A stretch of DNA of 26,357 nt. It comes from a virus (lineage: Duplodnaviria; Heunggongvirae; Uroviricota; Caudoviricetes). Under the pieces are notes generated by a model. The model saw only the letters and a program-made list of their open reading frames with translations. It was not told the DNA's origin and searched no databases. Each line of letters begins with the position of its first letter. The first letter of the stretch is position 1. Shown here piece after piece: positions 1 to 17,681 of this stretch. Where the stretch lies: positions 1 to 26,357 of IMG/VR virus record IMGVR_UViG_2541047815_000002; one strand, written 5' to 3'. The translations under genes were made by a program, and so were the position numbers.

Positions 1-1053
1 TTACGGGGTAATGCCAACCGCTGCCGCCACTTTGTCGCCACTTGGCAGCGTTGCCAGAGGATTGAAACGGAGCGCCGTTTCCAGATGATCCGGTGCCAGA
101 TGTGCGTAACGCATAGTCATTTTTATATCGTGGTGTCCGAGAATTTTTTGTAAGGCCAGAATGTTTCCACCCGACATCATGAAGTGCGCCGCAAACGTAT
201 GGCGCAGAACGTGTGTGAGTTGACCGCGAGGGAGCACGATAGACGTTTTTTCCATCACGGATAAAAATTGAAAATAGCAGTCTGTGAAGAAATTGAACCC
301 ATCAAGCGCCATGATCTCTTCGTAAAGCTCTTTACTGATAGGGATGCTTCTGTTTTTCTTCCCCTTCGTTCTTACAAAGGTAATTCGGTATTTGGTCACC
401 TGTGAACGAGTAAGATTTACGGCTTCTCGCCAGCGTGCGCCTGTGCTTAAGCATATCTTAACTACCAGTGCCAGAATTGGGTCCTGACGTTTGCAATCAG
501 CCAGTAATTCAACAATCTGCTCATGGGTAAGCCATGCCATCTCTTTTTCTGCGATGGTGAATTTTCGCATGTTCTCCAGTGGGTTCGGATACGACCATTC
601 GCCCAGGCGGGATAGTTCGCTAAAAACACTACTTAGATAGCTTTGCTCCAGGTTAATGGTGACCGGGCTTGCTCCTTTCTTCCATTTCTCGCTGAAGTAG
701 ATCTCACCTGTCAGGCGTTTATCTCGATAGTGGGCAAACATTTTAGAGGTTAGATCAGTTGCAAGGGGATTGCCCAGAGCGTCAACCATCAGCAGCAATT
801 TGTCATAGACATGCTGCCCAGCAGTCAGTGATTTACCATGTAGTTTGAACCATAGCTCAACCACGTCTTTCAGTGTTCGACGATCCACTGATTCACCTAG
901 CCAGGGCTTTGCTTCGGTTTCTTCCATCGTGTGACGCTCAAAAGCCAGTGCTTCGCCTTTGGTGGCGAATTGTTTACGCACACGACGCCCACTACGTCCG
1001 GCGGGGTAACATTCGCAAAGCCATTTTCCTGTGGTGAGTTTTCGTACAGCCAT
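1..1053 (-). CDS. int: Tyrosine integrase (P2/186-type site-specific recombinase)
   Basis: Minus-strand ORF. The preferred start is the ATG at 1051-1053 (protein MAVRKLTTGKW...), preceded by GGAGGG about 7 nt upstream on the coding strand. C-terminal region has the tyrosine-recombinase pattern (HVLRHTFA ... GHHDIKMTMRYAHL). The stop codon is at the very start of the window, so attL, if present, lies outside. Confidence 0.9.
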   Translation of the reverse strand: MAVRKLTTGKWLCECYPAGRSGRRVRKQFATKGEALAFERHTMEETEAKPWLGESVDRRTLKDVVELWFKLHGKSLTAGQHVYDKLLLMVDALGNPLATDLTSKMFAHYRDKRLTGEIYFSEKWKKGASPVTINLEQSYLSSVFSELSRLGEWSYPNPLENMRKFTIAEKEMAWLTHEQIVELLADCKRQDPILALVVKICLSTGARWREAVNLTRSQVTKYRITFVRTKGKKNRSIPISKELYEEIMALDGFNFFTDCYFQFLSVMEKTSIVLPRGQLTHVLRHTFAAHFMMSGGNILALQKILGHHDIKMTMRYAHLAPDHLETALRFNPLATLPSGDKVAAAVGITP

Positions 1054-1241
1054 AAAAAATGCCCTCCAATAGAGAGCATTTTTACTGTATGTATAACCAG
1101 TGTCAATGTATGAAATCCTGCGACCATACATCTCACTGAAGCCATAATGAAGTAGGCTATTCTTTTTGCTATGTGATCATGTAACTTTTGCGGTTAACCT
1201 GTGGCTCATTTTTATTTTAGGCGCAGATATAAAAGCAAAAG

Positions 1242-3721: not shown

Positions 3722-3948
3722 TGGCTGATGCAATGGATCTCGTACAGCAGCGCGTTGAAGAAGAACGCCAACGCCATATCCGTGCTGCCCGTGCCAAAAC
3801 GCCGGGCGTGTCCCGCGTGCTTTGCATTGAGTGTGAAGCGCCAATTCCGCCAGCACGCCGCCGTGCCATTCCGGGTGTGCAGCTTTGCATTACCTGTCAG
3901 GAAATCGCAGAGCTGAAAGGCAAACATTACAACGGAGGTGCTGTATGA
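3721..3948 (+). CDS. TraR/DksA-family C4 zinc-finger protein
   Basis: 75-aa protein with CxxC-(17 aa)-CxxC (CIECEAPIPPARRRAIPGVQLCITCQ), typical of phage TraR/DksA-like zinc fingers. Stop overlaps the Dam start (ATGA). Confidence 0.75.
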   Translation: MADAMDLVQQRVEEERQRHIRAARAKTPGVSRVLCIECEAPIPPARRRAIPGVQLCITCQEIAELKGKHYNGGAV

Positions 3949-4802
3949 GCACCATCCTGAAATGGGCGGGAAATAAAACTGCCATAATGTCCGAACTAAA
4001 AAAACATCTTCCTGCTGGCCCGCGACTGGTTGAACCTTTCGCGGGTTCCTGTGCTGTGATGATGGAGACGGATTATCCCAGCTATCTGGTTGCGGATATT
4101 AATCCTGATTTAATCAACCTTTATAAAAAGGTTGCCGCTGATTGTGAATCGTTTATATCTCGCGCCAGAGTTTTATTTGAGATCGCAAACAGGGAGGTGG
4201 CTTATTACAACATAAGGCAGGAGTTTAATTACTCAACTGAAATTACTGATTTCATGAAAGCGGTATATTTCCTGTATCTCAATCGTCACGGTTACCGTGG
4301 TTTATGTCGCTATAACAAGAGCGGGCATTTCAACATTCCCTACGGTAATTATAAAAATCCGTATTTCCCTGAAAAAGAAATTCGCGCATTTGCAGAAAAG
4401 GCCCAGCGAGCAACGTTTATCTGCGCCAGCTTTGATGAAACGCTGGCGATGTTGAAGGCGGGGGATGTGGTGTATTGCGATCCGCCGTATGACGGTACGT
4501 TTTCCGGCTATCACACTGACGGCTTCACTGAAGATGACCAGTATCACCTGGCATCTGTTCTTGAACATCGGTCATCAGAAGGACATCCGGTCATTGTTTC
4601 TAACAGTGACACATCCCTGATCCGTTCGCTGTATCGCAATTTTACTCACCACTACATCAAGGCAAAACGCAGCATCGGTGTGGCAGCTGGCGAGGGTAAA
4701 TCAGCAACAGAAATCATTGCTGTTTCCGGGCCGCGCTGCTGGGTGGGATTTGATTATTCGCGTGGCGTGGATAGTTCTGCCGTGTACGGAGTACGTGCAT
4801 GA
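3945..4802 (+). CDS. dam: Dam-type DNA N6-adenine methyltransferase (orphan, no cognate nuclease seen)
   Basis: ATG at 3945 with GGAGG upstream. N-terminal SAM-binding motif (KWAGNK ... EPFAGS) and the catalytic DPPY tetrapeptide at 4479-4490. Translationally coupled to gene A (ATGA overlap at 4799-4802). Confidence 0.85.
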
Positions 4803-7213
4803 GTCATGCCGATATGAACAACTGCTGCGGCTTTAACGAAGCTGCCGCATCGTTCTCATGGAACAGCTCGAAAAAGGCCATTAACCCTTATCTGGACCCG
4901 GTGGAAGTTGCGCCGGTTTCTACGCTTTCAAACCTGATCACTCTGTACGCTGCCGATAACGAGCAGGAACAGCTGCGCCGTGAGGCGCTGAGTGATCAGG
5001 TCTGGGAGCGTTATTTCTTTAATGAATCCCGTGATCCTGTCCAGCGCGAAATGGAACAGGATAAGCTCATTAGTCGGGCAAAGCTGGCGCATGAGCAGCA
5101 GCGTTTTAATCCGGATATGGTCATTCTGGCGGACGTCAACGCCCAGCCTTCCCATATCAGCAAGCCGCTGATGCAACGTATTGAATACTTCAGCAGCCTG
5201 GGCAGGCCAAAGGCTTATTCCCGCTATTTACGTGAGACGATTAAGCCATGTCTGGAACGACTGGAGCATGTACGCGACAGTCAGCTATCTGCATCTTTTC
5301 GCTTTATGGCAAGCCATGAAGGGCTGGACGGCCTGCTGATCCTGCCTGAAATGAGTCAGGATCAGGTGAAACGCCTGTCCACCCTGGTAGCTGCGCATAT
5401 GAGTATGTGCCTTGATGCCGCTTGTGGCGATTTGTATGCCACCGATGACGTTAAGCCAGAAGAAATCCGCAATACATGGGAAAGGGTGGCAGCGGAAACC
5501 CTGCGTCTGGATGTCATCCCGCCTGCGTTTGAGCAACTCCGTCGGAAAAGAAACCGCCGTAAACCCGTGCCCTATGAACTCATTCCGGGTTCGCTGGCGC
5601 GTATGTTGTGCGCCGACTGGTGGTATCGGAAATTATGGAAGATGCGTTGCGAATGGCGGGAAGAGCAGTTGCGTGCTGTCTGCCTTGTCAGCAAAAAAGC
5701 ATCTCCCTATGTCAGCTATGAAGCCGTGTTGCATAAACGTGAGCAGCGCCGTAAGTCGCTGGAGTTTTTCCGTTCTCATGAACTGGTGAACGAAGACGGC
5801 GACACGCTGGACATGGAGGATGTGGTAAACGCCAGCAGCAGCAACCCTGCGCATCGCCGCAATGAGATGATGGCCTGTGTTAAAGGTCTGGAGCTTATCG
5901 CGGAAATGCGCGGTGACTGCGCCGTTTTCTACACCATCACCTGTCCGTCACGTTTCCATTCCACGCTAAATAACGGCAGGCCCAACCCAACCTGGACAAA
6001 TGCGACGGTAAGACAAAGCAGTGATTATCTGGTCGGCATGTTTGCTGCATTTCGTAAGGCGATGCACAAAGCCGGATTGCGGTGGTATGGCGTGCGGGTG
6101 GCTGAGCCGCATCATGACGGTACAGTTCACTGGCACCTGTTGTGTTTTATGCGCAAAAAAGACCGCCGCACCATCACTGCATTACTGCGTAAGTTTGCCA
6201 TCCGTGAAGACCGCGAGGAGCTGGGCAATAACACTGGGCCGCGCTTTAAGTCTGAGTTGATTAACCCGCGCAAAGGTACGCCAACAAGCTACATCGCGAA
6301 ATACATCAGTAAGAACATTGACGGGCGTGGTCTGGCTGGCGAGATCAGCAAGGAAACGGGGAAATCCCTGCGTGATAATGCTGAATACGTTAATGCCTGG
6401 GCGTCTCTGCATCGTGTTCAGCAATTCCGCTTCTTTGGCATTCCGGGGCGTCAGGCTTACCGTGAACTGCGATTGCTGGCTGGTCAGGCGGCAAGGCAAC
6501 AGGGGGACAAAAAAGCAGGTGCGCCGGTACTGGATAACCCGCGCCTTGATGCCATTCTGGCTGCTGCTGATGCTGGTTGTTTTGCCACCTACATCATGAA
6601 GCAGGGTGGCGTACTGGTTCCCCGCAAATATCACCTCATCAGAACTGCTTATGAAATCAACGAAGAGCCGACCGCCTATGGCGATCACGGCATTCGTATT
6701 TATGGCATCTGGTCACCTATTGCAGAGGGCAAGATCTGCACTCATGCCGTGAAGTGGAAAATGGTTCGTAAGGCCGTTGACGTTCAGGAGGCGGCAGCCG
6801 ACCAGGGCGCTTGCGCCCCTTGGACTCGTGGCAATAACTGTCCCCTTGCTGAAAATTTGTACCAACAAGGGAAAGACAAATCAGCTGATGGGGATACCAG
6901 AACGGATATCACCCGTATGGATGACAAGGAGTTGCACGATTACCTGCACAGTATGAACAAAAAAGAACGCCGGGAACTGGCTGCAAGGTTACGCCTGGTG
7001 AAACCGAAACGGCGTAGAGACTACAAACAGCGAATTACAGACCATCAACGACAGCAGCTCGTCTATGAACTGAAGTCCAGAGGATTTGATGGCAGCGAGA
7101 AAGAGGTCGATTTACTCCTTCGCGGCGGCAGTATTCCGTCAGGAGCAGGCCTGCGTATCTTCTATCGGAACCAGCGTTTGCAGGAAGATGATAAGTGGCG
7201 GGATCTGTATTAA
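4799..7213 (+). CDS. A: Rolling-circle replication initiator (P2 gpA family endonuclease)
   Basis: 804-aa protein. HUH-type motif HWH at 6128-6136 and paired active-site tyrosines YIAKY at 6290-6304, as in P2 A and phiX174 A. Lies in the expected position after the early genes. Confidence 0.9.
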
Positions 7214-7565: not shown

Positions 7566-7799
7566 ATGCGCATTGAAATAATGATCGATAAAGAGCAGAA
7601 AATTAGCCAGTCTACCCTGGACGCCCTTGAATCCGAGCTTTACCGCAATCTGCGCCCCCTGTATCCCAAAACGGTAATTCGTATCCGCAAAGGTAGCTCT
7701 AACGGTGTGGAACTGACCGGACTGCAACTGGACGAAGAAAGAAAACAAGTGATGAAAATTATGCAGAAGGTGTGGGAAGACGACAGCTGGCTGCATTAA
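7566..7799 (+). CDS. DinI-family protein
   Basis: 77-aa protein beginning MRIEIMIDKEQ..., with an acidic C-terminus typical of DinI-like proteins. GAGGTGA RBS. Follows the LexA-boxed small gene. Confidence 0.75.
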   Translation: MRIEIMIDKEQKISQSTLDALESELYRNLRPLYPKTVIRIRKGSSNGVELTGLQLDEERKQVMKIMQKVWEDDSWLH

Positions 7800-8304
7800 G
7801 AAACGTTGCTGGCGTCTGAACTTGCTTCTGGCGTCAGCAAGGTTGAACAACGAGCTGTGCGAGGCGTTAGCCATCTGATCAAAAGACATCAAATATCATA
7901 TTGTATATCGTGGTCAAACGCTGGAAACAATCATTCCCGGTCAGAGGGGCTTCTTTCAATGTCCAAAAGAGTGAGATAGAGGATACAGGATGGGAAGAGC
8001 TTATGATGATTGTTCTTGGATTGACTTGGAATATTTGATGTCCATTATCTAATGGACTTGGTCTTGATAGTTATCACGAAAGAGGAAGCCAACGTCATGT
8101 ATTTGAAGAGTATCTCTTACCTTTTGATTAATTATTGTCCAAGTTTTTCAAAAGCTTCTTATCTGGCGGTCGATACATGATTTACTGTTGGATATGGTAT
8201 TTAAAATTAATCTTTACACTGTGGTATATGCAGAATAGGATATTATCAATACAATCAAACCGTTTTCATACGGTTGTTAATATTGCAATGTTATAGGTAA
8301 TGTC

Positions 8305-9423
8305 ATGTATCTTTTCAAGTATTACCGTCCGGACTTCTTCTTCGAGAAAGCTATTCGTTATAATGAATTATATTTTTCCGCTCCTGCGCAATTGAATGAT
8401 CCTAATGATCTCAATATAGATTATCGTTTTGATAATAAATTGAAATTATGGGATATTTTATTGCGTTCTCCTTGCGATAAATCCTATGAAAATTTGAGTC
8501 ACATATTAGATTTGAGTAATTTGAAGATACATAAGGGATTGAATCGTATTTTTAGAGGAAAAAAAATAAAAAGTAGCATTGAGTCATTAGATAGCCTGTT
8601 TGACTCACACGTTGATGAGATACGTAAGATCATAAATGATGGTTTACTACCTATCAATGTGATTAATTCCGCTATTTATGGGAATATTCCTGAACCACGC
8701 CAATTTTTGGTCTCACTTTGCGAGAACAGTATCAAAGAAAGGTTGTATAGGAAAATAGTTCCTGCAGTATTCAGTGTGTCATTTTCAGCTAATGCGTTAG
8801 ATCGTATGATGTGGGCGCATTATGCTGCAGGCTTTAGTGGTTGTGTTGTGATTTATGAAACGCAGGATTTTAATATTAATGGCGTGCCACATCCTGGAAT
8901 GAAGCTAAGAGAAAATTTATTTTCATCAGATAAATTTAATTTTCCAGTTAAGCAAATAAAATATAGTAATCAGGCTAAAGAGGTTTCACTTCTAGACCCA
9001 AGCGCAAATGTTGCAGAGTTATTTTTAACTAAAAATAGATTTTGGAGATATGAAGCTGAATATCGAATGTTTATTCCAGAGGCAAATGCAGGAATAGGGA
9101 GTGAGCGGCATGTTCAAAGACGCGTAAATCGAAATATTGGACATATTTTTCATCATGATGCTAATGTTGTTAAAGGGATCATTTTTGGTCCTAGAATGTG
9201 TGAAATGAAAAAAGAAAGCATATGGAATTGTATCAAGTCAAATATGGAGAATTCAAATTCAACAATATGTTATTTTTTTGACTCTGAGTTATCAGCATCA
9301 GGAAAGATTACTATTTCAAAAGGGCAACGAGCGGAAAAAATGAAAAATTTCCCTTTGTTCAGGAACAAGTTAAGTCAGACGGAAATGGCTAAAGTTTTGA
9401 AGGAAATTGGCATTACGAACTAA
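8305..9423 (+). CDS. DUF2971-like protein (372 aa), accessory cargo gene, candidate anti-phage/abortive-infection factor
   Basis: Lies in a strongly AT-rich island (by eye) that contrasts with the phage backbone. From memory it resembles the DUF2971 pattern: N-terminal LFKYYR ... LYFSAPAQLNDPND, then MWAHYA and RYEAEYRMF. It occupies the tin/old-equivalent hotspot downstream of A. Confidence 0.6.
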   Translation: MYLFKYYRPDFFFEKAIRYNELYFSAPAQLNDPNDLNIDYRFDNKLKLWDILLRSPCDKSYENLSHILDLSNLKIHKGLNRIFRGKKIKSSIESLDSLFDSHVDEIRKIINDGLLPINVINSAIYGNIPEPRQFLVSLCENSIKERLYRKIVPAVFSVSFSANALDRMMWAHYAAGFSGCVVIYETQDFNINGVPHPGMKLRENLFSSDKFNFPVKQIKYSNQAKEVSLLDPSANVAELFLTKNRFWRYEAEYRMFIPEANAGIGSERHVQRRVNRNIGHIFHHDANVVKGIIFGPRMCEMKKESIWNCIKSNMENSNSTICYFFDSELSASGKITISKGQRAEKMKNFPLFRNKLSQTEMAKVLKEIGITN

Positions 9424-9488
9424 CCTAACAACAGTGCATGCCTATGCTGCCTGAATTTGCATGACCGTTTGAGGATCGTTTTTGCTAA

Positions 9489-9513
9489 GGCCCGCCAGAA
9501 CTGGCGGGCTTTT
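9489..9513 (+). terminator. Rho-independent terminator after the 372-aa cargo gene
   Basis: GC-rich hairpin (GGCCCGCCA / loop GAAC / TGGCGGGCT) followed by a TTTT run. Confidence 0.5.
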
Positions 9514-9558
9514 GCGTGGATCAGGCACCTGCATGAAAACCACTACACAAAGCGGGCA

Positions 9559-9577
9559 GGCGTGGCGGGGATACGAG
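9559..9577. other. Candidate cos (cohesive-end) core
   Basis: GGCGTGGCGGGGA matches the first 13 nt of the 186/P2 19-nt cohesive end as I recall it (GGCGTGGCGGGGAAAGCAT / GGCGAGGCGGGGAAAGCAC). It sits in a short GC-rich patch inside the AT-rich island. The distal 6 nt differ from memory, so this is uncertain. Confidence 0.35.
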
Positions 9578-9679
9578 CGCGCGCTAACTCATAAATCCTA
9601 GATTATTAGTGGATTTATCTCATTGAAATGTGCACTATTCCCAGCATTGAGTTGTACCAGATGTCTTTATGGAGGGACT

Positions 9680-11446
9680 GTGGCTTTTGTAACTGATATT
9701 CGGCTTGAAGATAATGCTATTGCTGCACCTGCGACAGCACAGGTTATGGCTCAGAGGCTAGGATCTGTATTACGTAAGAGATATGAAGAATTCATCCATA
9801 AAAGAGAGTGTGCACCAGGCCAAGCAGACTATGATGTAAAAATGGCTAGCAGGGCTTTAGCTGCATTCACTATGTATCAGTTAGGATGTGTGGATGATAA
9901 GTATGCAGGGGAGTCTGTATGTGATAGTAGTGAAGATGGTGGTATAGATGGAATAGCAATCAACCATAACGAAAAAATCGTTGTTGTTGTTCAATCAAAA
10001 TTTCACCAATCGGGAAACGGCACTTGGACAAGAGCCGATTTTATGTGTTTTAAGGATGCTTGTGAGAAGCTACAAAGTGAAAGATACGAATTATTTGATT
10101 CCATATTGCAAAATAAAAGCGGGGAAATAAGTGCGGCTTTAAGTAGTTTTGAATACAAGTTCATCTTTGCGATGGCGCATACAGGTAAAAAAGGTGCTGC
10201 AGAGGAAATATTAAATGATATGCGGGAATGGCAATATCAATTAAACGCTGCAGCTTTTACACCTGAGGATGAGCCTAAAGAGAACTGGGGATTTCAGGTT
10301 CATTTAATATCCTCTGAAGATATGATGCATTGGTTACAGAATGGCTCTCGAAATCAAATTGATCTTAACAGGGTTGAAATTGAGCGTTTTGGATTTTTGA
10401 ATGAACCATATCAAGCTTTTTACGGGGCTATTAGTGGTGATCAAGTTGCAGAATGGTGGGAAGAGCATGGTGCTCGATTATTTACAAAAAACATAAGGAA
10501 TATGCTTGGTAAAACAGAAGTGAATGAGGAAATAAAAAAGACAGCTATAGATAATCCTGATATGTTTTGGTTTTATAATAATGGGATTACTGTACTGGTT
10601 AAGGAAGTTGTTCCTCATAGACGAAACGCAGCTCCTAATATAGAGAGAGGGATTTTTGATTTTCGTGATGTAAGTGTCATTAATGGTGCACAAACAGTCA
10701 GTAGTATTGGCGCATGTAAAGATGCGCTTGGTGAAAACATATATAGACTCAAAGTGCCAGCTAGATTCATTGTTATAGATGATGATACTGATAATTTAAC
10801 TGCAAATGCAATTACAAAAGCTAACAATTTCCAAAATAGAGTATTGGGAAGAGATTTTGCATCGCAGCAGGCAGATCAACATAGATTGGCAAGGGAGTTA
10901 GTGCTTGAAGGATATCAATATCAGTTACTAAGAACAGATGAAGATCATTCACAGACAAATACGAAAGTCATTGACTTGGATGAGGCGCTCAATGCACTCG
11001 CATGTTTAAGTAAAAATAATACGGTTGTATCGACACTAAAATCAAATCGCGGTAGGTTTTTTGAAAATTTTGAAGGCTCTCTATATAAAACTATTTTCAA
11101 TCCAAGATTAAGTGGTTTAAAACTTATCAATACTGTTCTACATTTTAGAGTTATAGATAAGTTGATCGGTAAAACATTACTATCAGTAGATAAAACGACC
11201 CATAGTCGCAAGCATTTAATTATTACGCATGGTAATAGATACTATGCGTCTGTACTATTGAGCAACGTTTCTGGGATACATAATAGCTCAGAAATTCTTG
11301 TTCCAGATGAAAAAAATCTTTCCGAAGAATTAAGTGCATTAATTCAACGTGCTGAAGAGTACATTGAAGATAATTACCCGAATGCCTATCCGGCAAGATT
11401 TTTTGCAAATCCAACGAAAATACAAGAGTTATACGATAATGTTTAA
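9680..11446 (+). CDS. AIPR-like (abortive infection phage resistance family) protein with putative N-terminal PD-(D/E)xK-like motif
   Basis: Long ORF in AT-rich DNA. Start is uncertain: TTG at 9623, GTG at 9680 with GGAGGG upstream, or ATG at 9746. Motifs DGGIDGI ... VVVVQSK (D...QxK, nuclease-like) and NNGIT ... INGAQT, which I associate with the AIPR family. Followed immediately by a strong terminator. Confidence 0.55.
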   Translation: MAFVTDIRLEDNAIAAPATAQVMAQRLGSVLRKRYEEFIHKRECAPGQADYDVKMASRALAAFTMYQLGCVDDKYAGESVCDSSEDGGIDGIAINHNEKIVVVVQSKFHQSGNGTWTRADFMCFKDACEKLQSERYELFDSILQNKSGEISAALSSFEYKFIFAMAHTGKKGAAEEILNDMREWQYQLNAAAFTPEDEPKENWGFQVHLISSEDMMHWLQNGSRNQIDLNRVEIERFGFLNEPYQAFYGAISGDQVAEWWEEHGARLFTKNIRNMLGKTEVNEEIKKTAIDNPDMFWFYNNGITVLVKEVVPHRRNAAPNIERGIFDFRDVSVINGAQTVSSIGACKDALGENIYRLKVPARFIVIDDDTDNLTANAITKANNFQNRVLGRDFASQQADQHRLARELVLEGYQYQLLRTDEDHSQTNTKVIDLDEALNALACLSKNNTVVSTLKSNRGRFFENFEGSLYKTIFNPRLSGLKLINTVLHFRVIDKLIGKTLLSVDKTTHSRKHLIITHGNRYYASVLLSNVSGIHNSSEILVPDEKNLSEELSALIQRAEEYIEDNYPNAYPARFFANPTKIQELYDNV

Positions 11447-11450
11447 ACTA

Positions 11451-11475
11451 AAGGGAGGTTGCCTCCCTTTTTTTT
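11451..11475. terminator. Bidirectional rho-independent terminator between AIPR-like gene and portal gene
   Basis: AAGGGAGG-loop-CCTCCCTT hairpin followed by a T8 run on the + strand, with an A-rich run on the other side serving the convergent Q gene. Confidence 0.7.
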
Positions 11476-11477
11476 AA

Positions 11478-12506
11478 TTAGAAATGGTATTCTTGGAATT
11501 CAATAACACCTTCTTCTATGAAATTGTTTATTTCTTGTAATCTTTTTTGCAATGGCAATAATTCATTACGTACAAATACTTTACTCGCCTTCTCTACATC
11601 TCCAAAGCCCCCAACATTATTAGGCATTATCCCCATCATTTGCGGCGGCACACGGTGTGCCGCCATCATGTCGTCCCGACTCACGTTCTTGATATTCAGA
11701 AACTCATCCTTCGCCGCGACTTCTGACAACGGGATAATCTGAAGCCCGTCCTTTTTGCCGTTAGGAGAGTACATAAACAGGTTGCGGAAGTTGCCTGGCC
11801 CTTTGGCGCTTTTCATTGCGTTGCGGAGGTTGTTCACATCTTCTTGGTTCTGCGCGGCATCGGTCATGTACATGATGAAACCTGCATGGCTGCCGTTGAT
11901 GTAATACTTACGGCGGAACAGTGTGGCGGACTCGTTGAGCAGGGCTGACGGGATGGCAGAAAGATAACCTGGCAGGCCGTAGATCTCCTGGTTGATGTCC
12001 GGTTCCATCAGATGAAAAATGCTGCCTTTCGTGAACTGATACGGCTGGGCTGTCATACCGTATTGCACAAACCAGTAGGTATCCAGGTCTAATCCGCGTC
12101 GGGTGTATTTTGCCAAAGCTGGCTCAAGGGCGATAACTTCACCAAAGCGGTTCGTGCGTTTCTCCAGGTAGGCGTTACCAAATACCAGATAGTCCTGCAC
12201 AAAACGCGAAAAAGCCTGCTGGCTAAGCAGCGGATGAGGGATATAGGTACTGGTCAGAATGTTGCACTTTACTGCAATCGGGGAACTGTGATGCACGGCG
12301 GCGCGGAAGGTGCGCGCCAGTCCATTAAAGCTGACGGGCGGCTCATACCAGCGATCCATCTGTACGCATTCCACATAGTCCAGCAGTTCGCGGCGGTCCA
12401 GCACGGGGATGGGATCACCAAAGCTGAAAGCCTCAGCCGTTGGGCCGTTGCTTGGTTTTGTGTCGTGATCAACTGTTACCTGCTTGGTGTTTTTACGTTT
12501 GCTCAT
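11478..12506 (-). CDS. Q: Portal protein (P2 gpQ family)
   Basis: 342 aa, the size and position of P2 Q. Last gene of the leftward P-Q late operon. Start ATG at 12504-12506 overlaps the stop of the upstream paralog. Confidence 0.9.
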   Translation of the reverse strand: MSKRKNTKQVTVDHDTKPSNGPTAEAFSFGDPIPVLDRRELLDYVECVQMDRWYEPPVSFNGLARTFRAAVHHSSPIAVKCNILTSTYIPHPLLSQQAFSRFVQDYLVFGNAYLEKRTNRFGEVIALEPALAKYTRRGLDLDTYWFVQYGMTAQPYQFTKGSIFHLMEPDINQEIYGLPGYLSAIPSALLNESATLFRRKYYINGSHAGFIMYMTDAAQNQEDVNNLRNAMKSAKGPGNFRNLFMYSPNGKKDGLQIIPLSEVAAKDEFLNIKNVSRDDMMAAHRVPPQMMGIMPNNVGGFGDVEKASKVFVRNELLPLQKRLQEINNFIEEGVIEFQEYHF

Positions 12507-13210
12507 TCTGCCAGTTCCTTGCTAGCGAGAGGCCATTCGCACATAAACAGCATTTTCCAGTCCTCTTCTGATAATTCTTTTTTCATATCGTTCAGCCAGT
12601 TATCAGTAAACAACATTGCTCCAGATGCTGCTGCGTCATCTGCGGTGAACACCATGCTGGTTACGCTGTTGTTTCTGCATAGCTTTTTATATTCCTGCCG
12701 TGCCTCTGGGTTAGGGCTGGGAGTGGTGTAGTAGGTGGCGTGGTAGTGTGCGTGCATAGAAATCCCTTTAGCGATGGCAATCATATTTCTCGGTGATTCA
12801 CTCCAGGCATACTCTGACACGTAAACATTTCCACTGAGTGCGGAGGTGAGACTGCTGAGGTCGGTAAAATAAATTACTGCACCATTCGGAAGCTCCAGAT
12901 GACTTTTGCCTGATTTTATTTTTCCAGTGTGCGTATAAGCTGCGGCCTGGCTTAAGAATGCTGATACACAGGCTTTGATTGCCTGCGCAGATGCTGTGCT
13001 GCAGCAGAGGAAAATCTGGTTACGCCCGGTATGCAGTGCATCGTTCAGGGCTTCATAGGAAAAAAAGAAATCCGCGCCTGCCTGGCGCATTTTTGTGAGT
13101 ACACGGTTTCTACTCTTTGGGCCAGTGTTCCACTCATACTGGTAAGCAAAGAAAAAGCTATCCACCGGAAGTCCCGCGATAGTCATGAGGTTAGTTGGGA
13201 TTGGGGGCAT
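12503..13210 (-). CDS. Terminase large-subunit ATPase-domain paralog (truncated, degenerate Walker motifs)
   Basis: 235-aa ORF inserted between P and Q, overlapping both by a few nt. It aligns by eye to the central ATPase core of the adjacent gpP (EALNDALHTGRNQIFL vs EALIDALLTGRNQIFL; LPNGAVIYF vs LPNGATLYF; TYYTTPS vs TYFSTPS; LFMCEWP vs LLMCEFV). It lacks the gpP N-terminal roughly 150 aa and the C-terminal nuclease domain. Walker A-like KSRQIGAT in gpP is KMRQAGAD here (13070-13093), and Walker B LYLDE is VYVSE (Ser codon 12815-12817). Confidence 0.7.
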   Translation of the reverse strand: MPPIPTNLMTIAGLPVDSFFFAYQYEWNTGPKSRNRVLTKMRQAGADFFFSYEALNDALHTGRNQIFLCCSTASAQAIKACVSAFLSQAAAYTHTGKIKSGKSHLELPNGAVIYFTDLSSLTSALSGNVYVSEYAWSESPRNMIAIAKGISMHAHYHATYYTTPSPNPEARQEYKKLCRNNSVTSMVFTADDAAASGAMLFTDNWLNDMKKELSEEDWKMLFMCEWPLASKELAE

Positions 13211-14976
13211 CAAAAAATCTCCACAATATTGCTGGTATTGGCGGATTCGCCCTGCAGCGGTTCGTTAAACAGTGCGTGCATCGTTGCCCAGGCCAGATCG
13301 GCGTGGCTGGCTTCTTCGCTGCGGCTGGCTTCATAGGTTGGGCGGTTGCCGCTCGCGGTGGTGGCGCGACGGATTGCCATGAATGACTGCGCTATGTCGG
13401 TGTGTCCGGCGTCAAACTCCAGACGGCGGTGGCTGATAATGTCGTAGGCCTTGAGTACCAGGGCGTTTTTAACATTGGGGTTATAGACAAACTCCCGGAC
13501 GGCTGGAAAAAACGCTTTCACGTTCTCGTAAACCCCGTGGCCGACACCTGTCGAGTCGATGCCGATGTAGGTCACGTTGTACTGCTCGGTCAGTTTTTTG
13601 ATGGCGTCAGCCTGGGCGCGGAAGTCCATCCCACGCCACTGGTGACGCTCAAGAATGCGGAACTTACCACCAGGCACGGCTGGCGGTGCCACCACTACGC
13701 ATCCGGCGCTGTCGCCGTTTTGCGTACCTTTTGCCGGGTCATAACCGATCCACACTTCGCGCCAGCCAAACGGGCGCAGAGCCAGTGCATGAAAGTCGGT
13801 CCAGACTTCCCAGCTGTCCACCATGCACGCCTGCAGCTCGCTGAGCGGGAACACGGACGCGAGATCGTCCACAAACTCGCACATCAGCAGGTTCTGGTAT
13901 TCGTCCGGGCTGTACTCCATGCGCAACTGGTCAAGGTCGAACAGGTTACAGCCGCCGCGCACCGCATCTTCCACGGTGACTATCTGGCGGTATTGCCCGT
14001 CTGCGCACAGCAGGCCGGGGGCCAGATTGCTGTGGGACAGGTCGATGTCCACCTTGTCGGCCTTGTTGCGCCCACGGTTGAACAGCGCACCGGACCAGAA
14101 CGGATAAGCACTGTGTGTCAGGCTGGATGGCGTGGAAAAATAGGTTTGTCGCCATTTTTTGTGAATAGCCATACCGGAAGCCACTTTGCGCAGCTCCTGG
14201 AATTTCGGTATCCAGAAATATTCATCCAGATACAGGTTGCCGTGATAACTCTGGGCCGTGCGGGCATTGGTGCCGAGGAAGTAAAGCGTGGCTCCGTTAG
14301 GAAGCACCATCGGATCGCCTTTCAGCTCCACCTCGACTTCTTTGGCGAAGTCTATGATGTACTGCTTAAAGACGTGAGCCTGTGCCTTACTGGCAGAAAG
14401 GAAAATCTGGTTACGTCCGGTAAGCAGGGCGTCAATCAGGGCTTCACGGGCAAAGTAAAAGGTCGCGCCGATCTGGCGTGACTTCAGCAGGTTGCGGATG
14501 CGGTTGGTTTTTCCGGCTTCCCACCAGTGGCGCTGGTAGTTGAACATGGAGGAATGGAAAATTTCTTCCAGCTTCTCAATCTGTTCATCGGTGAAAACAT
14601 TCTTTTCCGGCTGACGGCGCGGGCCTTTGTTGCGGTTGGCGACGTTAGGGTTTAAGTCGGCTTCGTTACCGCCATTGTTAAACTTGCCGATCCGCGCGTG
14701 GCGCTCCGACTGGCGCGCCAGCAGGTCAATTTCTTTGAAATCTTTCCCTTCTTTGTGCTCCTTCATAATGAGCTGGCAGTAGCGTGCGGCGGTGGTGAGC
14801 TGCATCTGATCCAGCGGCCCATAGTCACCCCACTTGTCGCGTTTTTTCCAGCTGTGAACGGTTGCAACTTTCTCGCCCAGCATTTCAGCAATGCGGGCTA
14901 CGCGGTATCCCTGAAAGTACAGCAGCATGGCCTGCCGACGGGGATCGAGATCTGCGGGTGTCAGTGTGGTGTTCAT
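13210..14976 (-). CDS. P: Terminase large subunit, ATPase (P2 gpP family)
   Basis: 588 aa. N-terminal HTH-like region, deviant Walker A KSRQIGAT (lambda gpA-like), Walker B LYLDE, C-terminal nuclease region. Divergent from O across the late-promoter region. Confidence 0.9.
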   Translation of the reverse strand: MNTTLTPADLDPRRQAMLLYFQGYRVARIAEMLGEKVATVHSWKKRDKWGDYGPLDQMQLTTAARYCQLIMKEHKEGKDFKEIDLLARQSERHARIGKFNNGGNEADLNPNVANRNKGPRRQPEKNVFTDEQIEKLEEIFHSSMFNYQRHWWEAGKTNRIRNLLKSRQIGATFYFAREALIDALLTGRNQIFLSASKAQAHVFKQYIIDFAKEVEVELKGDPMVLPNGATLYFLGTNARTAQSYHGNLYLDEYFWIPKFQELRKVASGMAIHKKWRQTYFSTPSSLTHSAYPFWSGALFNRGRNKADKVDIDLSHSNLAPGLLCADGQYRQIVTVEDAVRGGCNLFDLDQLRMEYSPDEYQNLLMCEFVDDLASVFPLSELQACMVDSWEVWTDFHALALRPFGWREVWIGYDPAKGTQNGDSAGCVVVAPPAVPGGKFRILERHQWRGMDFRAQADAIKKLTEQYNVTYIGIDSTGVGHGVYENVKAFFPAVREFVYNPNVKNALVLKAYDIISHRRLEFDAGHTDIAQSFMAIRRATTASGNRPTYEASRSEEASHADLAWATMHALFNEPLQGESANTSNIVEIF

Positions 14977-17030: not shown

Positions 17031-17681
17031 ATGAGCCTGAGTCCCGCACGGCAGCATCGCCTGCGCGTTCAGGCTGAACAGGCCGCCCGCGAGGGCGGCA
17101 GTGTTCGCCACGCATCGGGCTATGACCTGATGCTGCTGCAACTGGCGGAAGACCGCCGCCGTCTCAAGGGCGTTCAGTCCACGGTCAAAAAAGCGGAAAT
17201 CAAGGTGGAGCTGCTGCCGAAGTACACCGCCTGGGCAGAGGGTGTCCTGGCTGCCGGAGGCGCTCAACAGGATGACGTGCTGATGTACGTGATGCTGTGG
17301 CGCATTGATGCCGGAGATTATGCCGGAGCGCTGGAGATCGGGCGTCATGCCCTGCGTCATGGCTGGGTGATGCCGCTGGGTAACCGCAACGTGCAGACCG
17401 TGCTGGCAGAGGAAATGGCAGACGCCGCGCAGAGCGCAATGCTTGCCGCCACCGGCTTTGATGCCGATCTGTTGCTGCAGACGCTGGAGCTGACAGACGG
17501 TCTGGATATGCCGGACCAGTCACGGGCGCGTCTGCATAAAGCGATTGGCGCTGTCCTGAGTGAAAGCAATCCGGCGTCCGCCCTTAATCATCTCAACCAT
17601 GCGTTACAGCTCGATCCCCGCTGTGGCGTGAAAAAAGACAAACAGCAGCTGGAGCGCAGACTGCGCAATGACAGCCGCTGA
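17031..17681 (+). CDS. M: Terminase small/endonuclease subunit (P2 gpM family)
   Basis: 216 aa after N. Conserved segments resembling P2 M (QDDVLMYVMLWRIDAGDYAGALEIGRHAL). Confidence 0.8.
   Translation: MSLSPARQHRLRVQAEQAAREGGSVRHASGYDLMLLQLAEDRRRLKGVQSTVKKAEIKVELLPKYTAWAEGVLAAGGAQQDDVLMYVMLWRIDAGDYAGALEIGRHALRHGWVMPLGNRNVQTVLAEEMADAAQSAMLAATGFDADLLLQTLELTDGLDMPDQSRARLHKAIGAVLSESNPASALNHLNHALQLDPRCGVKKDKQQLERRLRNDSR

Follow-up and report, generated by a model that had tools for sequence, protein, structure and literature searches.

The stretch of viral DNA analysed here (26,357 nucleotides, referred to as the window) is 100 % identical to sequence from E. coli ARL09/232 (NZ_CP049967.1) and covers the greater part of a P2-family prophage (about 35.8 kb) located between ybjL and rcdA. 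The order of the elements is CI, cII, Fil, Dam, A (4799-7213), a small ORF, DinI, DUF2971, the predicted cos site, AIPR, Q, an extra ORF, P, O, N and M onward. The DinI-like gene (Tum-type, 7566-7799, plus strand) is the last conserved backbone gene before a first slot for cargo genes, which is occupied by a DUF2971 gene (8305-9423, plus strand; Pfam DUF2971). Its product is a candidate single-gene defence protein according to PADLOC (PDC-S31, E 3e-23). The second cargo gene (9680-11446, plus strand) codes for an AbiU-like protein of the AIPR family (Pfam AIPR, E 7e-35; PADLOC AbiU, E 6e-25); it has a GTG start at 9680 preceded by GGAGG, and the RefSeq coordinates are identical. It converges with Q, and a terminator scan located a bidirectional terminator-like hairpin between the two genes (11450-11470), which replaces the native tQ terminator.

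The portal gene Q (11478-12506, minus strand; Pfam Phage_portal) is 86 % identical to Q of Fels-2 and 62 % identical to the portals of P2, 186 and PSP3, thus the head module is of the Fels-2 type. The genes for the large terminase subunit gpP (TerL; 13210-14976, minus strand; Pfam Terminase_5, Terminase_6N and Terminase_6C) and for the small terminase and endonuclease subunit gpM (17031-17681, plus strand; Pfam Phage_term_smal) are both intact, and all head, packaging and morphogenesis genes of the prophage are annotated as intact. An additional ORF of 236 amino acids with a match to the Terminase_6N ATPase domain is present between Q and P (12503-13213, minus strand). Its identity is 31 % both to the N-terminal region of P from this prophage and to PSP3 orf2. 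Equivalents are found in 186, PSP3 and phage 500465-1 and are absent from P2, Fels-2, HS phage 1 and strain 98206; the Q/P junction is thus a third variable position. A link of this ORF to the AIPR cassette was rejected, since strain 98206 carries the AIPR gene without the ORF. At the other end of the window, positions 1-1181 (minus strand) contain the start of a 558-amino-acid DUF4041 gene between CI and int, not the integrase. This site is a further accessory slot, at which HS phage 1 has only a small ORF.

A preliminary description of this DNA had noted a short GC-rich patch between the two AT-rich cargo genes. The patch (9433-9585) has 57.5 % GC and is flanked by genes of 33.5 % (8305-9423) and 36.5 % GC (9680-11446). 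It contains the 13-mer GGCGTGGCGGGGA (9559-9571, plus strand), for which a match to the cohesive end of 186 and P2 had been proposed. For 186 this is exact: the annotated cohesive end of 186 and PSP3, GGCGTGGCGGGGAAAGCAT, begins with the same 13 nucleotides. The end of P2 and P4, GGCGAGGCGGGGAAAGCAC, differs from the 13-mer by one base. The alignment to the 186 and PSP3 end is gap-free and 13 of 19 positions, all contiguous, are equal; positions 14-19 of the end read TACGAG in the window, as in the Fels-2 type, and not AAGCAT or AAGCAC as in the 186 or P2 type. An exact copy of the 13-mer occurs only once in the 26-kb window, and a scan allowing up to two mismatches found a single other match at 4759.

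A 13-mer match taken alone is poor proof of a cos site. However, when the window was searched with a profile of the cos region (-130 to +27 relative to the nick; nhmmer), one match was obtained, at 9430-9584 (145 bits; E about 1e-42). The same profile gave only one strong match in a 43-kb genomic stretch that contains the entire prophage. Together with the homology over approximately 150 bp described below, this unique match rules out a chance occurrence of the 13-mer. The site is present in a single copy, between DinI and the Q-P late operon.

The predicted product of terminase cleavage is the 19-nucleotide 5′ cohesive end GGCGTGGCGGGGATACGAG (9559-9577, plus strand), which aligns without gaps to the annotated ends of P2, 186 and PSP3. 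The context of the top-strand nick is GCGGGCA^ (9552-9558, plus strand), and GCGGGCA^GGCG is found in 47 of 58 relatives. In the alignment of the 58 relatives the bottom-strand context, GCGCGCG^CTCG, is symmetric with the top strand; in the window it lies in the right flank CGCGCGCT (9578-9585, plus strand), and conservation across the family stops here, at +26/+27. The SEN8 record stops at the base equivalent to window position 9558, the predicted 3′ terminus of the right arm in virion DNA.

In P2, the terminase cuts cos to generate 19-nt 5′ overhangs, and packaging depends on a conserved core of about 55 bp; the signal used by P4 is the same. Ends of this kind have been described for P2, 186, PSP3 and P4 (Ziermann and Calendar, 1990, as reported in citing papers). 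We rebuilt the cos junctions of these four phages by joining the ends of their records and aligned them with the window and three phages of the Fels-2 type. The homology of the window to the P2, 186, PSP3 and P4 sites extends from about -125 to +26 around the nick, and the flanking packaging-recognition sequences, which the preliminary description had proposed to look for by such an alignment, are all present. Common to the window and the four phages are GCATG repeats, a dyad or hairpin, the motif TGCAT(T/G)AAAACC, the nick region AAAG(C/T)GGGC(A/G)^GGCG(A/T)GGCGGGGA and GCGCGC at +20 to +25. They also have in common that the site lies between the end of the early region and the Q-P operon.

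The left edge of the block is formed by three repeats of the type (T/C)GCATG with a spacing of about 11-12 bp (9436-9465, plus strand; about -123 to -94). They are kept in P2, 186, PSP3, P4 and the 58 relatives of the Fels-2 type, and the onset of conservation is abrupt at this point; the repeats are a putative terminase recognition region. The second repeat of the window reads GCCTG. Closer to the nick, the window reads CAGGCAccTGCATGAAAACC (9524-9541, plus strand), comprising a proximal GCATG pair and an A-tract, where the family alignment reads CATGCA..TGCATGAAAACC. Window position 9524 is G, the consensus being T in 93 % of the sequences, and TGCATGAAAACC itself (9530-9541) is almost invariant throughout the family. 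In the alignment the nick context is AAAGCGGGCA^GGCGTGGCGGGGA.

In the 58 distinct relatives, drawn from different species, conservation reaches 90 % or more in 94 columns, all of them located within the block. Conservation extends from about -125 to +26/+27 and is lost at once beyond either edge. P4 shares only the span of the cos block with P2, and the homology between the two ends exactly at +26. P4 is packaged by the P2 terminase (Rousset et al., 2022, PMC9122126). Since P4 can be packaged with P2 homology reaching only up to +26, the sequence to the right of this position is not needed.

At three positions where conservation among the relatives is 90 % or higher, the window has a different base (9451 A>C, 9465 T>C and 9524 T>G), and two of these substitutions are inside GCATG repeats. 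An effect on function is possible. Such departures number between 0 and 22 per relative with a median of 2, thus the window is no outlier. Two GATC (Dam) sites 11 bp apart, contained in GCATGATCGTTTGAGGATCG (9461-9476, alignment columns about 45-60), are nearly invariant in cos blocks of the Fels-2 type; both are present in about 44-50 of the 58 relatives, and the cos regions of P2, 186 and P4 lack them. The window is the sole sequence in which the first site reads GACC. These phages encode a Dam methylase of their own (RefSeq; window-equivalent 3945-4802), and the pair of sites recalls the Dam-dependent cleavage of pac in phage P1.

In agreement with the preliminary description, which placed the cos-like sequence just downstream of a hairpin, the block contains the hairpin AAGGCCCGCCAG-AA-CTGGCGGGCTTTT followed by TTTT (9487-9512, plus strand), 47 nt upstream of the nick. 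Its folding energy is -24.5 kcal/mol (z -4.3). Across the 58 relatives, 82 % of the cells are paired compared to 25-53 % when the partners are slid, and seven of the 11 pairs have changed on both sides. The hairpin was not among the terminators listed by the consensus terminator scan, perhaps because A/T pairs lengthen the stem. It resembles an intrinsic terminator and may end rightward transcripts before they reach cos. In 186, PSP3 and P4 the dyad is present without a clear T-run. It could equally well be a dyad-symmetric protein-binding site or have a role in cos at the DNA level. An Rfam search of positions 9300-9800 gave no match to a structured RNA at E values up to 1.

Experimental support for the identity of the site comes from a sibling prophage, HS phage 1 of E. 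coli, whose cos has been mapped after mitomycin induction by analysis of read starts and PhageTerm (Zund et al., 2021, Microbiome 9:77, PMC8008629, Suppl. Table S4). The mapped site is 5′-GGCGTGGCGGGGATACGAG-3′ at 926016-926034 (PMC8008629), determined from read starts and not from direct sequencing of the ends. This cohesive end is identical to window 9559-9577 at 19 of 19 positions. The terminase and capsid proteins of the two prophages are nearly the same, with identities of 100 % for TerL, 99.1 % for TerS (gpM) and 99.4 % for the capsid protein. Both prophages use the same integration site adjoining rcdA and have the same order of DinI, left cargo, cos, right cargo and Q. In HS phage 1 the cos site lies 1,531 bp from the Q stop, with the left cargo gene on one side and a right cargo gene coding for 463 amino acids on the other. 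The end mapping that had been proposed as a check on the embedded site has thus, by analogy, in effect been carried out on this sibling, and the ends fall at the homologous embedded position.

The two prophages differ in several respects: the recognition region is 86 % identical (137/160), the cargo in both slots is unrelated, the extra TerL-like ORF at the Q/P junction is absent from HS phage 1, and the HS phage 1 genome has 31.5 kb compared to about 35.8 kb. The backbone of the window is 97.7 % identical to HS phage 1 (L099) up to position 7797 and again from 13208 on. In the interval between these positions only the cos block (89 %; 9436-9584) and Q (90.5 %; 11497-12440) can be aligned, from which we conclude that the region from DinI to Q is a recombinational mosaic with cos and Q as islands of homology. 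At both ends of Q the identity is only 53-66 %. The alignment suggests that breakpoints of recombination may lie within Q and that cos and Q may have been exchanged along with the cargo.

Sites homologous to the one described here are also found in SEN8 (Salmonella), Cartapus (Escherichia) and Smp131 (Stenotrophomonas), where they are annotated as cos or coincide with the start of the record and where one to five genes lie between the site and the portal gene. The Smp131 record begins and the SEN8 record ends exactly at the homologous nick; the Cartapus record begins about 35 nt upstream. The Smp131 end, GAGACGAG, has one different base. Among the GenBank records with this cos subtype, we found none with experimentally mapped ends: cos is labelled only as "putative" in SEN8 and Cartapus, and the ends of Smp131 were set by analogy to P2 and not mapped, as stated in the corresponding paper. 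A literature search for PhageTerm analyses of P2-like phages returned nothing relevant.

The distance between cos and Q had been regarded as the unusual property of this locus. The nick is located 1,919 bp from the Q stop (11478), which agrees with the estimate of about 1.9 kb of intervening cargo. The value of about 100 bp that had been given for P2 is too low; the distance is 186 bp in P2 and 195 bp in 186. In P2, 186 and PSP3 the nick lies about 186-197 bp from the Q stop and no gene intervenes, whereas the window has 1.9 kb and a gene. The direct adjacency of cos to the Q terminator that is seen in these three phages is absent from the window. To see how common each layout is, we surveyed 80 loci anchored on Q, with one genome per species, in which cos was located by the profile to measure how far the nick lies from the Q stop. 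A confident cos match was obtained for 60 of the 80 loci. The distance exceeds 700 bp in 49 of these 60, is between 271 and 700 bp in two and, as in P2 and 186, does not exceed 270 bp in nine, with a median of 1,686 bp and a maximum of 3,518 bp. Between gpA and cos the spacing varies as well (461-4,391 bp). A gene between cos and Q is thus the majority layout in this lineage and not, as had been implied, an exception, and the embedded cos can also be seen in the deposited annotations of Fels-2, SEN8 and Cartapus. We regard the adjacency of cos and Q as a habit of the type phages and not as a defining feature. Two loci of the survey gave two profile matches each, L063 at 2232-2365 and 2713-2865, about 0.5 kb apart, and L080 at 2368-2504 and 8001-8150, 5.6 kb apart (all in reversed coordinates). 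These might be duplicated cos sites, tandem elements or adjacent satellites.

Two explanations had been offered for the distance in the window, namely that cargo was inserted between cos and Q or that the true cos differs. There is strong support for the first, an insertion of cargo. In "empty" relatives a native spacer of approximately 150 bp, which includes the tQ terminator, connects cos with the Q stop; in the window this spacer has given way, from +27 up to the Q stop, to the AIPR cassette. The flanks are present, and HS phage 1 has its mapped ends in the same arrangement. The second explanation holds only for positions 14-19 of the cohesive end (TACGAG), and no other cos-like block is found in the prophage. 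A second cos beside Q was rejected, since the AIPR stop and the Q stop are separated by only 31 bp, which are filled by the terminator.

The region between gpA and gpQ of P2-like phages is known as a hypervariable, "cos-adjacent" hotspot for defence genes (Rousset et al., 2022, PMC9122126; NAR 2026, PMC13586616). The window has the same locus with variable content between gpA/DinI and gpQ, and its cargo belongs to known or candidate defence families. The relevant sections of the two papers treat the hotspot as a single one, whereas here cos splits it into two slots, and we found no statement in these sections on the side of cos at which the cargo sits. In P4 the variable genes (gop, beta, cII) begin directly to the right of +26, as does the right slot of the window.

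The distribution of the two cassettes was examined in 5,426 complete E. coli genomes with the 3.7-kb DinI-Q region as query. About 1,249 of these genomes match only the cos islet of approximately 155 bp, and the full arrangement occurs in only four. The AIPR cassette was found in 12 E. coli genomes with various partners in the left slot, among them E423 with DarTG and 98206 with a ComF pair. The DUF2971 cassette was found in 27 E. coli genomes, mostly with a different partner in the right slot, for instance a 557-amino-acid hypothetical protein in p10A and a PIN-domain protein in NS-NP030. In strains with exchanged partners the cos block lies between the two cassettes, where this was checked, and the coordinates of the cos matches in L096, L097 and L098 fit intergenic gaps. 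The left (DUF2971/PDC-S31) and the right (AIPR/AbiU) cassettes thus assort independently in E. coli. The right-slot cargo of 30 loci falls into 26 unrelated clusters, and nine of ten sampled right-slot proteins match PADLOC defence models, including bSEFIR, Old, IetS, AbiLi and PtuA-like. The cargo at these 30 loci (L012-L073) is almost always encoded on the strand that runs from cos to Q and is convergent with Q; in one of the 30 the longest ORF has the opposite direction.

Based on the conserved sequence, positions 9436-9585 are very probably the cos site of a P2-family prophage of the Fels-2 type, with a second cargo slot to the right of +26. The comparison with HS phage 1 shows at the sequence level that the block is orthologous to a mapped cos and that the prophage also encodes a nearly identical terminase; by analogy, it is likely to function as cos in this particular strain as well. 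The prophage's own terminase (gpP and gpM) would recognise about 125 bp to the left of the nick, a stretch that contains the GCATG repeats, the hairpin or dyad and TGCATGAAAACC. The two subunits are predicted to bind to the GCATG repeats and the A-tract, and staggered nicking of the top strand before G9559 and of the bottom strand after 9577 would leave GGCGTGGCGGGGATACGAG as a 19-nt 5′ overhang. Since nothing is needed to the right of +26, this position has become the second cargo slot. It is here filled by the AIPR/AbiU-like gene with its own terminator, and the left slot is the classical one that holds tin and old in P2 and DUF2971/PDC-S31 in the window. The cos site thereby divides the gpA-gpQ hotspot into two positions at which cassettes are swapped independently. 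In the virion DNA the two genes would come to lie at the extreme ends, with 122 nt between the left end and the start of the AIPR gene and 135 nt between the end of the DUF2971 gene and the right end.

It is improbable, but the best of the alternatives, that the block is a true cos orthologue that has been weakened or has lost its function, the prophage being cryptic or poorly packaged due to the substitutions, an over-length genome or both. The three departures at positions conserved to at least 90 % fit this explanation, since two affect GCATG repeats and one destroys the nearly invariant GATC site. The prophage is also longer than HS phage 1 (about 35.8 kb compared to 31.5 kb) with an almost identical capsid protein, and the longer genome could lower the efficiency of packaging. 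However, three departures are close to the median of two and many relatives have more, the 19-mer and both nick contexts are perfect, the morphogenesis genes are all intact, and relatives of 35.2-35.6 kb have been deposited as phages.

Far less probable is a relic cos that was carried in with the cargo, with the functional site elsewhere, for example beside Q or outside the window. The stronger divergence of the block (89 %) and of Q (90.5 %) compared to the backbone (97.7 %) indicates that the block was moved by recombination, but the 31 bp between the AIPR and Q stops are taken up by the terminator, the 43-kb search revealed no second strong site, and every element common to P2 and P4 has been retained. 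We give equally little credence to an islet maintained mainly as a terminator or insulator between operons or as a recombination anchor, with a secondary resemblance to cos: conservation of the hairpin and its T-run includes some compensatory changes, and the islet is the sole sequence common between the two swapping cassettes, but the most invariant columns are those of the nick region and TGCATGAAAACC and not those of the hairpin, the identical 19-mer is the mapped cohesive end of HS phage 1, and such roles would be compatible with cos function and are not alternatives to it.

Returning to the block as a functional cos, we suggest tentatively, and with slightly less than even confidence, that its approximately 150 bp also serve as a portable homology anchor. 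In this case the two slots would recombine independently, the block would sometimes travel with the cargo, the right slot would correspond to the position of the P4 hotspot (+27), and the hairpin would shield cos and the right slot against read-through of the early operon.

The same cohesive end has already been reported in the literature for HS phage 1. What is added here is modest: the explicit picture of two slots, the sharp boundaries of the block at -125 and +26, and a right slot that is positionally equivalent to the P4 hotspot. This refines the current understanding and does not overturn it, since the layout is ordinary for the lineage and a gene between cos and Q is no anomaly in these phages. 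The identification would fix the ends of the virion genome for a family of prophages that is common in E. coli, the cos islet being present in about 23 % of the complete E. coli genomes. Surveys of the gpA-gpQ hotspot could gain resolution if the region were split at cos, because its two sides turn over independently and lie at opposite ends of the virion DNA. In one of the AIPR-carrying strains, E. coli E423 (L096, locus 6388-7056), the cassette resides in a decayed prophage. Its portal gene is truncated and fused beside a fragment of a tail gene, which points to a deletion of the head genes, but the cos block and the two defence slots are still present.
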